Part shown: positions 1-64,000 of the stretch, in pieces
Layout: the number at the start of each line of letters is the position of its first letter
Numbering within the stretch: the stretch's first letter is position 1
NCBI RefSeq assembly: GCF_044704955.1
Contig: NC_091995.1
Location: forward strand, 53,320,001-53,384,000
Source: Pristiophorus japonicus
Taxonomy: Eukaryota
DNA length: 64,000 nucleotides
Reading direction: 5' to 3'
Notes under the pieces: generated by a model
The model's database searches: none
What the model was told of the DNA's origin: nothing
What the model saw: only the letters and a program-made list of their open reading frames with translations
Translations under genes and position numbers: made by a program

Positions 1-55004
<55,004 letters not shown>

Positions 55005-55897
55005 GGGCTCAATTCCCCCAGAGCTTTTTTTGGCATACTTGAAGAATTACTGCTGTTTTTTGCGGGGGGGCCAAGTATGCAAAAAAAAAATATTCTCAGT
55101 TTACCCAATGGATTTCTTCATTTTGACGCAGCCTAACCTGTCATTTAGTTTTGGGGGTGGAGCCTTGATCTGTGCCAAAAAGATCGGGTTATTATTAAAG
55201 CCGGTCCCGCTCCCCGCCCCTAGCTCTGGAGGAAGAGCTTGCTGGTCTGCTTGCCTAGCCCGTCCCAAGCCCCTTGCCGGTGGAAGTGCAGTTCTGCTCT
55301 CCCCCCGTCCCCTCTAGGGCCTTGCCCGTAGGCTCCCCCGCTCCTAGCCCTGGCCAAGTGGCCTCCGTCCTCCCGTCCCCGCACCTAATTACACCCGAAA
55401 GGCTTCCCCGCCACCCCATTTCTGCCCCCCCACACACCCCCCCCAACTCTCTCCACATCCCCACTTCCACCTCTCTCACTCTGCCCCTCTCTCTTACCTT
55501 TCTTGCTGCTGTTATCCAGGCATCAGCTGCACTTACAAGCATTGATTTCCTTACCTGCATTGATTTCCTTACCTGCACCGATTTCCTTACCTGCACCGAT
55601 TTTCTTACCTGCACCGATTTCCTTAACTCCCCAGAAGGTTTTTCTGCAGAGGCCACATACGCTGGCCTAAGAAGAACTGGAGTAACTCTCAGCTGGCCAA
55701 ACTTGCCTGAATAGCCAGAGTTGGCACGGGTGGCAGGTTACGCCTCCTTTTGCTGAAAAAAAAAGTACCTAAAAAAAATCGTTACTGACTGAGTTATGCT
55801 GGTGCAAATTGATCGGGAAAACTGTGGTTTCTTAGCAGGCTAAAAAAAACAGCCTGTTCCAAAAAAACGTTGCAAATCACTGGGGAAGACTGAGCCC
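55005..55897. mobile_element. Non-autonomous DNA transposon (MITE, PIF/Harbinger-like) inserted in the CR1
   Basis: Left end GGGCTCAATTCCCCCAG (55005-55021); the right end reverse-complements to GGGCTCAGTCTTCCCCAG (55880-55897). Flanking 3-mers ACA (55002-55004) and ATA (55898-55900) fit a 3-bp TSD with one mismatch. The CR1 peptide stops at TRGH and resumes as LRIRGRPFK directly after the element. No transposase ORF. Confidence 0.82.
55532..55625. repeat. 18-bp tandem repeat, about 5 copies, inside the MITE
   Basis: Unit GCA(T/C)(T/C)GATTTCCTTACCT starting at 55539, 55557, 55575, 55593 and 55611 (last partial); seen as TC(I/T)DFL repeats in the ORF track. Confidence 0.93.
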
Positions 55898-56186
55898 ATA
55901 CTCTCAGAATAAGGGGCCGCCCATTTAAAATTAGATGAGGAGGAATTTCTTCTCTGAGGGTTGTAAATCTATGGAATTCTCTGCCTCAGAGAGCTGTGGA
56001 GGCTGGGTCATTGAATATATTTAAGGTGGAGATAGACAGATTTTTGAGCGATAAAAGAATAGCAGGTTATGGGGAGCGGGGAGGGAAGTGGAGCGGAGTC
56101 CATAATCATATCAGCCATGATCTTATTGAATGTTGGAGTGGGTTCGAGGGGCCAAATGGCCTACTCCTGCTCCTATTTCTTATGTT
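55898..56186 (+). mobile_element. CR1 LINE, right part: ORF2 C-terminus and 3' UTR/tail
   Basis: Encodes, with small indels, LRIRGRPFK..RRNFFS..RVVNLWNSLPQRAVEAGSLNIFKVEIDRFL, the usual CR1 ORF2 end. Finishes with GAGGGGCCAAATGGCCTACTCCTGCTCCTATTTCTTATGTT, a CR1-type 3' end. Confidence 0.92.
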
Positions 56187-56512
56187 TGCTCTTGTCCCAG
56201 TTTTGTTCCCATCATGCTGCTCCCTCGGGGAGAGTTGTTGCTTTATGCAAGGTCCTAAGTCATGCAGGATTCAAGCCGGTAAACGCAGCAGGGCGGATCC
56301 AGGTGTGGCCTAACATACGGGACTGAGAAAAACCGATAGGAAATTTCCACATTCACTCAGAGTACAGCGCGAATTGATATATCTCTTTCAGCCTGAACCC
56401 TAGCACAGTCCCCTTCATTACACATTCCCAGCATTCACAGTGCTCCTTTGGACCTGAGACTCAACCAGCCTAAAACAACCATTGCAATGTACAGTCGAAG
56501 TTGCCCTGCCCA

Positions 56513-56545: not shown

Positions 56546-56821
56546 TTGTGCCAGAGGTGATGGTCTATGCCAAGATGACCCCAGATGGCCAGAATCGCAA
56601 TCTGCATTGCCTAGCCACTGGCTTTTACCCACAATCTATCAATGTGACCTGGATTAGAGATGGAGAGCCAATCGCCAGTGCATCAAGCTCCGGCATTTTA
56701 CCCAACCACGACGGCACCTTCCAAATCAAGATCTCCCTGCTGATCAATCCCGAGGACAAGCATCAGTACATCTGCCGCGTCACACACAGCAGCTTGTCTC
56801 AAGAAAAGGATATACCCTGGG
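56546..56821 (+). CDS. Internal exon encoding an Ig C1-set domain, MHC class I heavy chain alpha3-like
   Basis: VPEVMVYAKMTPDGQNRNLHCLATGFYPQSINVTWIRDGEPIASASSSGILPNHDGTFQIKISLLINPEDKHQYICRVTHSSLSQEKDIPW has CxAxGFYP, the core Trp in WxRDG, the class I-type LPNxDGTFQ, the Ig/MHC signature YxCxVxH and a terminal W. It is 276 bp (same length as human class I exon 4), phase 1-1, bounded by CAG| and G|GTAAGG, with no stops. Confidence 0.92.
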
Positions 56822-57979
56822 GTAAGGAATGGGTATAACCCGGGTAAGGAATGGGTATAGCCCGGGTAAGGAATGGGTATAACCCGGGGTAAGGATTGGG
56901 TATAACCCGGGTAAGGAATGGGTATAACCCGGGGTAAGGATTGGGTATAACCCGGGTAAGGAATGGGTATAACCTGGGTAAGGATTGGGTATAACCTGGG
57001 TAAGGATTGGGTATAACCCAGGTAAGGATTGGATAAAACCCGGGGGAAGGATTGGGTATAACCTGGGTAAGGAATGGGTATAACCCGGGTAAGGAATGGG
57101 TATAACCTGGGTAAGGAATGGGTATAACCCGGGGTAAGGAATGGGTATAACCCGGGTAAGGAATGGGTATAACCCGGGTAAGGAATGGGTATAACCCGGG
57201 GAAGGAATGGGTATAACCCGGGGTAAGGAATGGGTATAACCCAAGGTAAGGAATGGGTATAACCTGGGTAAGGAATGGGTATAACCCGGGATAAGGAATG
57301 GATATAACCCGGGGTAAGGAATGGGTATAACCTGGGTAAGGAATGGGTATAACCCGGGGTAAGGAATGGGTATAGCCCGGGTAAGGAATGGGTATAACCC
57401 GGGGTAAGGATTGGGTATAACCCGGGTAAGGAATGGGTATAACCCGGGGTAAGGATTGGGTATAACCCGGGTAAGGAATGGGTATAACCTGGGTAAGGAT
57501 TGGGTATAACCTGGGTAAGGATTGGGTATAACCCAGGTAAGGATTGGATAAAACCCGGGGGAAGGATTGGGTATAACCTGGGTAAGGAATGGGTATAACC
57601 CGGGTAAGGAATGGGTATAACCTGGGTAAGGAATGGGTATAACCCGGGGTAAGGAATGGGTATAACCCGGGTAAGGAATGGGTATAACCCGGGTAAGGAA
57701 TGGGTATAACCCGGGGAAGAAATGGGTATAACCCGGGGTAAGGAATGGGTATAACCCAAGGTAAGGAATGGGTATAACCTGGGTAAGGAATGGGTATAAC
57801 CCGGGATAAGGAATGGATATAACCCGGGGTAAGGAATGGGTATAACCTGGGTAAGGAATGGGTATAACCCGGGGTAAGGAATGGGTATAACCTGGGTAAG
57901 GAATGGGTATAACCCAGGGTAAGGAATGGGTATAACCCGGGGTAAGGAATGGGTATAACCTGGGTAAGGAATGGGTATA
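56822..57979. repeat. Intronic 22/23-bp minisatellite (GGGTAAGGAATGGGTATAACCC[G]), about 51-52 copies
   Basis: Starts at the exon donor and fills about 1,158 of the 1,210 intron bases. Contains an internal 515-bp duplication (TATAG variant at 56856 and 57371; CCAAG variant at 57241 and 57756). Confidence 0.98.
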
Positions 57980-58007
57980 TTCTCGGGTCAGTGTACTGGG
58001 TTGGGGA

Positions 58008-58031
58008 CTGACTGTATCCTTGTTACATCAG
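58008..58031 (+). promoter_or_regulatory. Branch point and 3' splice site of the transmembrane exon
   Basis: CTGAC at 58008-58012 (branch A 20 nt before the exon boundary), a short pyrimidine-rich stretch, and CAG at 58029-58031. Confidence 0.7.
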
Positions 58032-58157
58032 ATGAAGATTTTGGTTTCAAGCTGTGGATGATTATTCTCGTGCTGATTCCCGTGCTGATTGGTGGCCTTG
58101 TCCTCTTGGTGTACAAACGAAGAGAGGACATGAAACACGCCTGGTGTTTCAATCCAG
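58032..58157 (+). CDS. Exon encoding connecting peptide, transmembrane helix and start of cytoplasmic tail of the same MHC class I-like gene
   Basis: Splicing 56821 to 58032 is in frame (G+AT = Asp): ...IPW-DEDFGFK-LWMIILVLIPVLIGGLVLLVY-KRREDMKHAWCFNP. This is a 21-residue hydrophobic segment followed by a KRR stop-transfer. Ends at a consensus donor CAG|GTAAGA (58155-58163), phase 1. Confidence 0.87.
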
Positions 58158-58208
58158 GTAAGACCCTAAAGCCTATCGCATTTCCCTTCGCGACACACAG
58201 TCAGTCAT

Positions 58209-58565
58209 GAAAGAAGAAAGAAAGACTGACTTACATTTCAACAGCACTTTTCACCACCACCGCAGGTCTCAAAGCGTATTACAGAAAATGAAGTACTTTT
58301 GACGTGAAGCTCCAGTTTTAATGCAGGAAACGTGGCAGCCAATTTGTGCACAGCAAGCTCCCACAAACAGCAATGTGATAATGACCAAATAATCTGTTGT
58401 AATGATGATGTTTGAAGGAGAATTATTATCCAGCACACCGGGGAGAACTCCCCTGCTCCCCTTGGAAAGAGTGCAGTTTGGTCCTTTACATTGACTTAAA
58501 GAGACAGACATGAGCTCAGTTTAATGTCTCATCCAAACGACAATGCAGGACTCCCTCAGTACTGA
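58209..58565 (-). mobile_element. DeuSINE-type (SacSINE1/AmnSINE1-like) SINE, 3' portion, antisense to the gene
   Basis: A (GAAA)n tail at 58209-58224 is followed by blocks GGCAGCCAATTTGTGCACAGCAAGCTCCCACAAACAGCAATGTGATAATGACC, CACCGGGGAGAACTCCCCTGCTC and GTTTAATGTCTCATCC, which I recognise as the reverse complement of this family. Family assignment is from memory and needs a Dfam/Repbase check. Confidence 0.72.
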
Positions 58566-61500
58566 CCCTCTGACAGTGCATTGCTCCCTCAGTACTGCCC
58601 CTCCAACAGTGCAGCGCTCCCTCAGTACTGCCCCTCCGACAGTGCAGCATTCCCTGAGTGCTGCCCCTCCGACAATGCAGCACGCCCTCAGTACTGCCCC
58701 TCCGACAGTGCAGCGCTCCCTCAGTACTGCCCCTCCGCAGTGCAGCATGCTCTCAGTACTGCCCCTCCGACAGTGCAGCTCTCCCTCAGTACTGCCCCAC
58801 CGACGGTGAAGCACTCCATCAGTACTGCCCCTCCGACAGTGCACCATTGCCTCAGTACTGCCGCTCCGACAGTGCAGCACTTCCTCAGTACTGCCCCTCA
58901 GACAGTGCAGCGCTCCCTCATTACTGCCCCTCCGGCAGTGCAGCGCTCCCTCAGTACTGTCCTTCCAACAGTGCAGCACTCGCTCAGTATTGCCCCTCCG
59001 ACAGTGCAGCAACTCCTCAGTACTTCCCCTCCGACAGTGCAGCACTCCCTCAGTACTGCCCCTCAGATAGTGCAGCGCTCCCTCATTACTGCCCCTCCGG
59101 CAGTGCAGCGCTCCCTCAGTACTGTCCTTCCAACAGTGCAGCACTCCCTCAGTAATGCCCCTCCGACAGTGCAGCACTCTCTTAGTGCTGTCCCTCGGCC
59201 AGCGCAGCACTCCCTCAATACTGTGCCTCTTACAGTGAAGCACTCCCTCAGTACTGCCCCTCCGACAGTGCAACACACCCTCAGTAGTGCCCCTCCAACA
59301 GCACAGCGCTCCCTCTGTACTGCCCCTCCCACAGTGCAGCACTCCCTCAGTACTGCCCCTCCGACAGTGCAGCGCTCTCTCAGTACTGCCTCTCCGACAG
59401 TGCAGCGCTCCCTCAGTGCTGCCCCTCCAACAGTGCAGCGCTCCCTCAGTACTACCCATCCCAAAGTCTAGCATTCCCTCAGTACTGCCCCTCCCAAAGT
59501 CTAGCACTCCCTCAGTATTGCCCCTCCCAAAGTCTAGCACTCCCTCAGTACTGCCCCTCCCAAAGTCGAGTGCTCCCTCAGTACTGCCCTGCTCACAATG
59601 CAACACTCCCTCAGTACTACCCATCCGAGAATGCAGTGCTCACTACTCTCTCAGTACTGTACCTCCGACAGTGCAGCAGTCCCTCAGTACTACTCCTCCA
59701 ACAGTGCAAATCTCTCCCAGTCCCACAGTGCAGCACTCCCTCAGTACTGCCCCTCCAACAGTGCAGTGTTGCCTCAGTACTGTCCCTCCGACACTGCAGC
59801 GCTCCCTCAGTACTGCCCCTTCTAAAGTGCAGTGCTCCATCAGTACCTCACCTCCAACAGCGCAGCGCTCCCTCAGTACTGCCCCTCCCACAATGCAGCA
59901 CTCCCTCAGTACTGTCCCTCCCACAATGCAGCACTCCCTCAGTACTACCCCTCCAACAGTGCAGCACTCCGTCAGTACTACCCCTCCAACAGTGCAGCGC
60001 TCCCTCAGTACTGCCCCTCCGACAGTGCAGCACTCCATCAGTACTACCCCTCCGACAGTGCAACGCTCCCTCAGTACTGTCCTTCCAACAGTGCAGCACT
60101 CGCTCAGTATTGCCCCTCCCACAGTGCAGCAACTCCTCAGTACTTCCCCTCCGACAGTGCAGCACTCCCTCAGTACTACCCCTCCGACAGTGTAGCACTC
60201 CCTCAGTAGTGCCCCTCCGACAGCACAGCGCTCCCTCTGTAGTGCCCCTCCGCCAGTGCAGCACTCCCTGAGTACTGCCCCTCCCACAGTGCAGTGTTCC
60301 CTCAGTACTACCCCTCCGACAGTGCAGCGCTCTCTCAGTACTGCTTCTCCTACAGTGCAACACTCCCTCAGTACTGCTCCTCCAACAGCACAGCGCTCCC
60401 TCTGTAGTGCCCCTCCGCCAGTGCAGCACTCCCTGAGTACTGCCCCTCCCACAGTGCAGTGTTCCCTCAGTACTACCCCTCCGACAGTGCAGCGCTCTCT
60501 CAGTACTGCTTCTCCTACAGTGCAACACTCCCTCAGTACTACACATCCCAAAGTCTAGCACTCCCTCAGTACTGCCCCTCCCAAAGTCTAGCACTCCCTC
60601 AGTACTGCCCCTCCCAAAGTCTAGCACTCCCTCAGTATTGCCCCTCCCAAATTCTAGCACTCCCTCAGTACTACACATCCGAGAATGCAGTGCTCCCTCA
60701 GTACTGCTCCTCTGACAGTGCAACGCTCCCTCAGTACTGCCCCTCCGACAGTGCGGCGCTCCCTCCAACAGTGCAACTCTCTCTCAGTACTCCGCCTCCA
60801 ACAGTGCAGAGGCCCTCTGTACTTCCCCTCCGACAGTGCAGCACTCTCTCAGTACTGTACCTCCGACAGTGCAGCAGTCCCTCAGTACTACTCCTCCAAC
60901 AGTGCAAATCTCTCCCAGTACTGCCCTTCCCACAGTGCAGCACTCCCTCAGTACTGCCCCTCCAACAGTGCAGCGTTGCCTCAGTACTGTCCCTCCGACA
61001 CTACAGCGCTCCCTCAGTACTGCCCCTCCGACAGTGCAGCACTCCCTCTGTACTGCCCCTTCCAAAGTGCAGTGCTCCATCAGTACCTCACCTCCAACAG
61101 CGCAGCGCTCCCTCAGTACTGCCCCTCCCACAATGCAGCACTCCCTCAGTACTGTCCCTCCCACAATGCAGCACTCCCTCAGACCTGCCCCTCCAACAAT
61201 GCAGCACTCCGTCAGTACTACCCCACCAACAGTGCAGCGCTCCCTCAGTACTGCCCCTCCGACAGTGCAGCACTCCATCAGTACTACCCCTCCGACAGTG
61301 CAACGCTCCCTCAGTACTGTCCTTCCAACAGTGCAGCACTCGCTCAGTATTGCCCCTCCCACAGTGCAGCAACTCCTCAGTACTTCCCCTCCGACAATGC
61401 AGCACTCCCTCAGTACTACCCCTCCGACAGTGTAGCACTCCCTCAGTAGTGCCCCTCCGACAGCACAGCGCTCCCTCTGTAGTGCCCCTCCGCCAGTGCA

Positions 61501-64000
61501 GCACTCCCTGAGTACTGCCCCTCCCACAGTGCAGTGTTCCCTCAGTACTACCCCTCCGACAGTGCAGCGCTCTCTCAGTACTGCTTCTCCTACAGTGCAA
61601 CACTCCCTCAGTACTGCTCCTCCAACAGCACAGCGCTCCCTCTGTAGTGCCCCTCCGCCAGTGCAGCACTCCCTGAGTACTGCCCCTCCCACAGTGCAGC
61701 GTTCCCTCAGTACTACCCCTCCGACAGTGCAACACTCCCTCAGTACTACACATCCCAAAGTCTGGCACTCCTTCAGTACTGCCCCTCCCAAAGTCTAGCA
61801 CTCCCTCAGTACTGCCCCTCCCAAAGTCTAGCACTCCCTCAGTATTGCCCCTCCCAAATTCTAGCACTCCCTCAGTACTACACATCCGAGAATGCAGTGC
61901 TCCCTCAGTACTGCTCCTCTGACAGTGCAACGCTCCCTCAGTACTGCCCCTCAGACAGTGCGGCGCTCCCTCCAACAGTGCAACTCTCTCTCAGTACTCC
62001 GCCTCCAACAGTGCAGAGGCCCTCTGTACTTCCCCTCCGACAGTGCAGCACTCTCTCAGTACTGTACCTCCGACAGTGCAGCAGTCCCTCAGTACTACTC
62101 CTCCAACAGTGCAAATCTCTCCCAGTACTGCCCTTCCCACAGTGCAGCACTCCCTCAGTACTGCCCCTCCAACAGTGCAGCGTTGCCTCCGTACTGTCCC
62201 TCCGACACTGCAGCGCTCCCTCAGTACTGCCCCTCCGACAGTGCAGCACTCCCTCAGTACTGCCCCTCCAACAGTGCAGCGTTGCCTCAGTACTGTCCCT
62301 CCGACACTGCAGCGCTCCCTCAGTACTGCCCCTTCTAAAGTGCAGTGCTCCATCAGTACCTCACCTCCAACAGCGCAGCGCTCCCTCAGTACTGCCCCTC
62401 CCACAATGCAGCACTCCCTCAGTACTGTCCCTCCCACAATGCAGCACTCCCTCAGTACTGCCCCTCCAACAGTGCAGCACTCCGTCAGTACTACCCCTCC
62501 AACAGTGCAGCGCTCCCTCAGTACTGCCCCTCCGACAGTGCAGCACTCCATCAGTACTACCCCTCCGACAGTGCAACGCTCCCTCAGTACTGTCCTTCCA
62601 ACAGTGCAGCACTCGCTCAGTATTGCCCCTCCCACAGTGCAGCAACTCCTCAGTACTTCCCCTCCGACAGTGCAGCACTCCCTCAGTACTACCCCTCCGA
62701 CAGTGTAGCACTCCCTCAGTAGTGCCCCTCCGACAGCACAGCGCTCCCTCTGTAGTGCCCCTCCGCCAGTGCAGCACTCCCTGAGTACTGCCCCTCCCAC
62801 AGTGCAGTGTTCCCTCAGTACTACCCCTCCGACAGTGCAGCGCTCCCTCAGTACTGCTTCTCCTACAGTGCAACACTCCCTCAGTACTGCTCCTCCAACA
62901 GCACAGCGCTCCCTCTGTAGTGCCCCTCCGCCAGTGCAGCACTCCCTGAGTACTGCCCCTCCCACAGTGCAGTGTTCCCTCAGTACTACCCCTCCGACAG
63001 TGCAGCGCTCTCTCAGTACTGCTTCTCCTACAGTGCAACACTCCCTCAGTACTACACATCCCAAAGTCTAGCACTCCCTCAGTACTGCCCCTCCCAAAGT
63101 CTAGCACTCCCTCAGTACTGCCCCTCCCAAAGTCTAGCACTCCCTCAGTATTGCCCCTCCCAAATTCTAGCACTCCCTCAGTACTACACATCCGAGAATG
63201 CAGTGCTCCCTCAGTACTGCTCCTCTGACAGTGCAACGCTCCCTCAGTACTGCCCCTCCGACAGTGCGGCGCTCCCTCCAACAGTGCAACTCTCTCTCAG
63301 TACTCCGCCTCCAACAGTGCAGAGGCCCTCTGTACTTCCCCTCCGACAGTGCAGCACTCTCTCAGTACTGTACCTCCGACAGTGCAGCAGTCCCTCAGTA
63401 CTACTCCTCCAACAGTGCAAATCTCTCCCAGTACTGCCCTTCCCACAGTGCAGCACTCCCTCAGTACTGCCCCTCCAACAGTGCAGCGTTGCCTCAGTAC
63501 TGTCCCTCCGACACTACAGCGCTCCCTCAGTACTGCCCCTCCGACAGTGCAGCACTCCCTCTGTACTGCCCCTTCCAAAGTGCAGTGCTCCATCAGTACC
63601 TCACCTCCAACAGCGCAGCGCTCCCTCAGTACTGCCCCTCCCACAATGCAGCACTCCCTCAGTACTGTCCCTCCCACAATGCAGCACTCCCTCAGTACTG
63701 CCCCTCCGACAGTGTAGCACTCCCTCAGTAGTGCCCCTCCGACAGTGCAACACTCCCTCAGTACTACCCATCCCAAAGTCTAGCACTTCCTCAGTACTGC
63801 CCCTCCCAAAGTCTAGCACTCCCTCAGTATTGCCCCTCCCAAAGTCTAGCACTCCCTCAGTACTGCCCCTCCCAAAGTCGAGCGCTCCCTCAGTACTGCC
63901 CTGCTCACAATGCAACACTCCTTCAGTACTACCCATCCGAGAATGCAGTGCTCCCTCAGTACTGCCCCTCCGACAGTGCAGCGCTCCCTCAGTACTGCTC
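58538..64000. repeat. 33-bp minisatellite (CAGTACTGCCCCTCCGACAGTGCAGCACTCCCT), at least 5.4 kb, about 165 copies, open at the right window edge
   Basis: 33-bp period gives the 11-aa repeats in the ORF track (QYCPSDSAALP, TVQHSLSTAPP). A variant sub-unit ...CCCAAAGTCTAGCACTCCCT occurs in clusters, and there are 1.2-1.3 kb higher-order repeats. Confidence 0.98.

Follow-up and report, generated by a model that had tools for sequence, protein, structure and literature searches.

The locus examined here raises the question of how the correct 5' splice site is chosen when a gene's own splice donor has been copied many times into the adjoining intron. The window, a stretch of 64,000 nt of the Pristiophorus japonicus genome (NC_091995.1, positions 53,320,001 to 53,384,000, forward strand), contains the alpha3 exon of an MHC class I gene, directly followed by a minisatellite in which the donor is reiterated. 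The initial annotation had taken this array for a possible dial, with the copy number setting how much of the product is membrane-bound and how much soluble or degraded. The features of the locus are given below in window positions, with a slash at the exon-intron cut of each donor.

56546-56821, plus strand: alpha3 exon (C1-set; PF07654, E 3.4e-17) of UDA, a nonclassical MHC class I gene; 276 nt, both ends in phase 1.
56801-56823, plus strand: putative seed of the repeat, the last 21 exon bases and GT (23 nt), 16/21 identical to the 23-bp unit.
56811-56837, plus strand: predicted 7-bp hairpin, TATACCC (56811-56817) with GGGTATA (56831-56837); the 13-nt loop holds the true donor.
56819-56827, plus strand: authentic donor GGG/GTAAGG, cut after 56821, the only donor seen used in the RNA contigs and in the P0001 join.
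56820-57979, plus strand: minisatellite, 52 units of 22/23 bp with 45 pseudo-donors and 95 G-runs.
56836-56838, plus strand: in-frame TAA in unit 1; the read-through tail GKEWV also ends the orthologue P0003.
56842-57719, plus strand: 515-bp block duplication within the array.
57019-57027, plus strand: strongest pseudo-donor, CAG/GTAAGG (second copy 57534-57542); its use would give a 476-nt exon.
57243-57251, plus strand: pseudo-donor AAG/GTAAGG (second copy 57758-57766).
57964-57986, plus strand: last, diverged unit; an intron from its GT would be 68 nt long.
57987-58031, plus strand: unique 3' end of the intron with acceptor CAG, identified from the sequence and from acceptor use in RNA contigs.
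58032-58157, plus strand: transmembrane (TM) exon, 126 nt, donor CAG/GTAAGA.

The top database match was P0001, a protein labelled as class I-related from Pristiophorus japonicus. Its leader, alpha1, alpha2, alpha3 and TM exons were all found on C19 at 100%, and in the protein model the TM exon follows alpha3 through the junction 56821>58032. The nurse shark orthologue P0005 is Gici-UDA in the supplementary alignment belonging to PMC10751288, and in a tree of 23 proteins P0001 and P0005 fell within one clade of 14 rows (support 93/97). Alpha1 and alpha2 each had a single match in the genome, at 97-99%, and the next-best alpha3 was only 53% identical. UDA is described as a single-copy elasmobranch MHC class Ib gene in the available parts of PMC10751288 and PMC12562908. 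The exon matches of P0001, the orthology with Gici-UDA and the single copy therefore identify the host of the array as UDA, a single-copy nonclassical MHC class I gene. Many class I exons were present on C19 at 40-57 Mb; a UDA gene would be expected in the MHC class Ib cluster, near brd2 and beta2m. A search of 174 kb of this region did not turn up the cytoplasmic exons of P0001. UDA forms that skip alpha3, with alpha2 joined to TM, were seen in P0032 of a bamboo-type shark and in the skate-like Logan protein P0034 (five contigs).

As assembled, the array consists of 52 units of 22 or 23 bp on the plus strand (TRF: 56820-57979, period 22, 51.8 copies), with a spacing of 22 bp in 31 cases and of 23 bp in 20. 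The units start with GT in 46 of 52 cases, with GG in four and with AT in two. GTAAGG is present in 46 units, that is, in the true donor and 45 decoys; the reiteration claimed by the initial annotation was real, while its figure of about 50 decoys was too high. At positions -3 to -1 there are 13 decoys with GGG, 14 with TGG, 13 with CGG, two each with CAG and AAG, and one with AGG. The earlier statements that many copies share the 9-mer of the true donor and that four copies surpass it were both correct: GGG/GTAAGG recurs identically in 13 decoys, and the better ones are the CAG type at 57019 and 57534 and the AAG type at 57243 and 57758. These CAG and AAG variants occur in pairs because a block of 515 bp was duplicated, 56842-57204 being copied exactly at 57357-57719 (363 identical bases). 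The variants among the units are ordered, and several differences separate the two blocks.

The match between the exon end (56801-56821) and the repeat unit, 16 of 21 bases without gaps, and all coordinates held on recheck. It lies beyond chance, as no position reached 14/21 or more in a control of 200,000 draws at 2,500 positions (window 54000-56500). Among 256 exon windows compared with the unit in every rotation, the 21-mer at the very end of the exon matched best, in agreement with the proposal that the unit is the exon end plus GT, amplified. The first unit spans the boundary between exon and intron, and the array starts at 56820 or earlier. A dispersed repeat or transposon as source of the unit was rejected, as the exact 25-mer unit had 20 matches in the genome (5.9 Gb), all within the UDA array. 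The canonical G-quadruplex pattern gave no match in the array with loops of up to 7 and 22 matches with loops of up to 12. A donor-like CGG/GTCAGT lies at 57987, directly after the last unit, and CTGAC at 58008-58012 is presumably branch-point-like, judged by the consensus.

Donor strength was scored by pairing with the U1 5' end from this genome and with a matrix of 74 heuristically called donors. The true donor forms seven Watson-Crick pairs and one GU with U1 (-9.7 kcal/mol), whereas decoys of the CGG type reach -10.8 and those of the CAG type -11.5 kcal/mol, the latter with 10/11 Watson-Crick pairs. In the matrix of 74 donors the true donor stands at the 54th percentile and the CAG and AAG decoys at the 99th-100th. 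Sequence strength does not pick the true donor over the decoys.

Folding gave a different ranking. The 9-mer of the true donor was predicted to be unpaired at 0.37-0.65, compared with at most 0.17 for any decoy, and in openness it ranked first among 46 in all seven window settings. The predicted cost of opening it was 0.05-0.23 kcal/mol against a median of about 3, placing it first at all four nascent lengths. It is singled out in these models because TATACCC of the exon pairs with GGGTATA of unit 1, so that the donor is looped out. When positions +1 to +6 were taken by themselves, the true site ranked only 11th to 15th. Eight paralogous donors, at 3.7-7.6 kcal/mol, were predicted to be less accessible than the decoys (median about 3), and the junction region showed no unusual stability (z -0.28). 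The predicted hairpin is a possible helper of first-donor choice and not its explanation. With 95 G-runs in the array, silencing by G-run enhancers (hnRNP F/H) was possible too; it was not adopted because fish introns seldom contain G-rich elements, according to the part of PMC3606033 available.

Donor use was assessed in RNA. The alpha3 exon was present in three of the 17 runs listed (share 0.64; one study, three samples). The evidence consists of assembled contigs from samples in which NMD was active; the contigs derive from a simplified graph, as stated in the available part of PMC12424806, and such graphs drop minor isoforms. In all three runs the contigs covered exons alone and crossed the 108-kb intron, and they therefore represent RNA. 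Alpha3 and the TM exon were found back to back on one contig in X15 (record places 568-845 and 845-972) and in X16 (533-810 and 406-533). In X17, at a depth of 761, the TM exon continued after 56821 for 27 nt, which is below the threshold for a bridge of at least 31 letters on each side of the junction; two of the three runs reached it. The 56821>58032 join was thus present at contig level in 3/3 runs bearing the gene. Neither 56827-56866 nor 57962-58018, at the ends of the array and intron, was covered by any contig of the three runs, and a stable intron-containing mRNA was accordingly not seen in them. A decoy branch or an array-derived contig was likewise found in none of the three, one of them at depth 761, in contigs from which minor isoforms are dropped. 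The contigs of X1 and X2, two of the 14 small-share runs, gave no match at the locus.

The RNA contigs reveal which stable mRNA dominates; they do not show that leakage is nil. At this resolution, at which minor isoforms are hidden, the 56821 junction alone was found, the very result that the initial annotation had named as speaking against its proposal. The copy-number dial was not upheld, as all three runs joined 56821 to 58032 and no contig entered the array. Among the orthologues, leaving P0003 and P0022 aside, 11 of the 12 others that bear alpha3 and were aligned extend past the junction into the TM-exon region; the orthologue P0029 has no hydrophobic stretch.

Read-through from alpha3 into the intron gives a chain ending in PWGKEWV at the TAA of unit 1. 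This stop lies upstream of the first decoy GT (56844), as had been stated earlier, and every GTAAGG decoy lies 3' of it. The sole GT upstream of the TAA, in TGG/GTATAA at 56833, scores below every one of the 74 sampled donors. Use of decoy 1 would give a 298-nt exon, with the junction at the TM-exon donor 131 nt past the stop, and use of a CAG decoy one of 476 nt. Neither AATAAA nor ATTAAA is present in 56822-58600. By the 50-nt rule, a stop far upstream of a junction marks an mRNA for NMD. Decoy-spliced mRNAs would be NMD targets, and a stable soluble chain would be the less likely outcome, because the TM-exon junction lies at least 131 nt downstream and a polyadenylation signal is absent. 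The initial annotation had allowed either a soluble protein or an NMD target; the stop and the tail stand, and the soluble form is unlikely. Soluble HLA-G5 arises by retention of intron 4, and the UDA stop, close to the start of the intron that follows alpha3, would similarly give a class I chain lacking TM. Unlike HLA-G5, UDA had no retained-intron contig in any of the three runs and has no polyadenylation signal nearby.

The first unit appears to be old. In the frame of the exon the unit reads stop-GMGITR and the exon QEKDIPW. The C-terminus of P0003, a Logan-only orthologue from another species (one contig of 1,195 nt; 79% identical), reads QAMDTTWGKEWV, with the GKEWV tail that unit 1 also gives, and the chance of W, V and a stop after the consensus-driven codons is about 5e-5. 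Since the tails agree, the first unit is likely to predate the split of Pristiophorus japonicus and the P0003 species. No TM form of the latter was found among 125 hits, a library search at 50% with P0003 gave no further read-through orthologue, and no short genomic ORFs reading through the donor were found in other sharks. Cluster members were compared for eight orthologues; in the skate cluster, of which 15/32 members were listed, the 11 further Logan members among them all had 355 aa, none being of read-through length. Read-through tails are also on record for the paralogues P0058 and P0079, and a TM-like stretch was missing in 17 of 84 class I-like proteins. At least four changes would bring the unit to the codons of P0003, compared with five for the present exon and 5-9 for 11 other orthologues; ATG and ACC of the unit are in common with M and T of P0003. 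That the unit is a relic of an older exon end was suggestive only, the gain amounting to one change, and was not adopted. The sequence at the exon end is nearly palindromic, and 11 bases of it, one GU included, are complementary to the last unit; these features would make a plausible seed for slippage.

The arrangement is already known from human F7, IFI6, CBS, LMNB2 and PDGF, and UDA adds one more case. In the available sections of Borensztajn et al. 2006 (PMC1557585), to which all comparisons with these genes refer, a 37-bp VNTR is described in F7 intron 7. The authentic, first donor alone is used in F7, LMNB2 and PDGF, while IFI6 and CBS also use one or two pseudo-sites directly downstream. 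In F7 minigenes, pseudo-sites with consensus values of up to 91 did not compete, whereas perfect sites took 70-90% of splicing. The UDA locus works like F7: the first unit spans the exon-intron boundary, the donor is reiterated downstream (45 GTAAGG copies in UDA), and the most upstream site is in use, shown for UDA at contig level in 3/3 runs. Unlike F7, with its four to eight pseudo-sites, UDA has 45; its unit is 22/23 bp long and holds 21 exon bases, its copies vary at -3 to -1 with four stronger than the true donor, its unit 1 contains an in-frame stop, and the host is a shark and not a mammal. The F7 authors found no masking structure, whereas a hairpin is predicted at UDA (PMC1557585). 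Long runs of donors are shared with IFI6 (6-16) intron 2 (25) and CBS intron 13 (15-20 units; also in the available part of PMC2630376), but no use of pseudo-sites was seen in the UDA contigs, which drop minor isoforms. As in the LMNB2 and PDGF minisatellites, the authentic donor alone was seen used; the units of these two are longer (100 and 81 bp) and their copies fewer than in UDA. An array at the alpha3 donor is not described in the available parts of the published elasmobranch UDA accounts (PMC10751288, PMC12562908), and no description of this UDA array was found in the literature.

These results are best explained, with good confidence, by a minisatellite that probably grew by slippage from a 23-bp duplication; the first donor alone was used in the transcripts seen, and the 45 copies are probably silent and removed with the intron. 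One old duplication of the alpha3 exon end and its donor would have been followed by divergence of the copy and by a recent amplification; tandem arrays are present in all introns of this gene. Later steps are visible in the 22- and 23-bp variants and in the 515-bp block duplication. The most upstream donor would be taken first and define the normal 276-nt exon, as in human F7, and the predicted hairpin, which leaves the true donor alone fully open, may contribute. Transcripts that leak to a decoy would all contain the TAA and would probably be removed by NMD, so the array would be cheap to carry. Several points count against a silent array. Pseudo-sites are used in IFI6 and CBS, and perfect sites took 70-90% of splicing in F7, as given in the available part of PMC1557585; the CAG/GTAAGG decoys are near-perfect. 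P0003 ends in the read-through tail, with no TM form among the hits.

The array may instead leak, as in IFI6 and CBS (PMC1557585, available part): a minor share of splicing would go to the nearest decoy or two, or to the near-perfect CAG sites, and the stop-bearing products would be degraded, which would lower UDA output a little without any selected role. In pairing with U1 the decoys equal or surpass the true donor (-10.8 and -11.5 against -9.7 kcal/mol), use of decoy 1 would give a 298-nt exon, and P0003 could be such a product. It may equally be an unspliced precursor, read-through tails being known from P0058 and P0079; furthermore, no branch or array-derived contig appeared in the three runs, one at depth 761, and none of the 12 paralogous alpha3 donors of this genome is spanned by an array. 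We regard a leak of this kind as rather unlikely. A regulated switch, in which splicing at decoys or a retained intron gives a secreted, GKEWV-tailed UDA or an NMD target at a ratio set by the copy number, is improbable. GKEWV ends at the same place in a 79%-identical orthologue (chance about 5e-5) and the TM region is plastic in the lineage (alpha3-skipping P0032 and P0034), but 17 shared intron-proximal bases need common descent only. Moreover, the stop lies in unit 1, so that one unit would do all that 52 would, the membrane join alone was seen in Pristiophorus japonicus, and the absence of a polyadenylation signal ahead of the following junctions makes a stable mRNA for a soluble form unlikely. 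Scarcely better are the prospects of a variant in which squalomorph-type sharks keep the stop-bearing unit 1 to switch UDA to a secreted or degraded form, hairpin and array length here setting the frequency. A U1 snRNP sink, also suggested initially, and an assembly artefact are the least credible readings. The array does offer 45 U1-complementary sites in 1.2 kb, but one intron set against at least 40 full-length U1 genes would make no meaningful sink; and the 363 identical bases of the duplicated 515-bp block, which might suggest an artefact, occur among ordered unit variants and in blocks that differ at several places, as in real arrays.

The silent array would then be a likely harmless oddity, one more donor-spanning minisatellite ignored by the spliceosome. 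It offers a natural test case from a cartilaginous fish, where the first site prevails over 45 competitors although four of these are stronger donors, and would extend the first-donor rule of human F7 (PMC1557585, available part) across jawed vertebrates. A soluble form, if true, would bear on the function of the ancient UDA lineage.

How ordinary such arrays are was estimated from 80 kinase exons, of which six without a callable donor were dropped and 74 kept; the donors were called heuristically and the rate is rough. An array lay within 800 nt of the donor in 11 of the 74, and one (L089) had the same donor-spanning build (95% interval 0.03-7%). Here 12 exon and 21 intron bases are repeated 12 times as a 33-bp unit, and two copies keep AGG/GTAAGT. 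L089 lies at C17:19321252-19322506 on the minus strand, in a receptor tyrosine kinase exon that we take to be Trk-like from its motif. Within UDA itself, the alpha1-alpha2 intron (L037, C19:53265483-53268060) repeats its donor start GTGAGCAC another eight times, in 43-46-bp units arranged in two blocks. A satellite of 7-mers, 105.5 kb long, begins 49 nt after the alpha2 donor, and RNA contigs splice across it. A donor-spanning array is background in this genome and gene.

Several other repeats were observed. The alpha2-alpha3 intron of UDA (108 kb) is filled by the 105.5-kb (GACAGGG/ACAGGAG)n satellite (window 4-53937, C19:53268384-53373936). Between this satellite and the alpha3 exon, at window 53940-55010 and 55880-56190, lie LINE-like fragments, presumably of CR1/L2 type. 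At window 55544-55625, on the minus strand, an 18-bp repeat of 4.6 copies contains CAG/GTAAGG or CAG/GTAAGA four times with no exon known alongside; donor-like arrays therefore also arise by chance. In the three class I alpha3 paralogues L009-L011, minisatellites of 43-48 bp begin about 35 nt or less from the called donor, which is itself uncopied. At C3:316.6-319.3 Mb (L014-L020, L033-L036), off the C19 cluster, about nine near-identical intronless class I-like ORFs run from alpha1 to TM in one frame (474-777 aa) and look like amplified retrocopies. After the TM exon of UDA a 33-bp array extends for at least 45 kb, from window 58538 to 64000 and on to at least C19:53423992.
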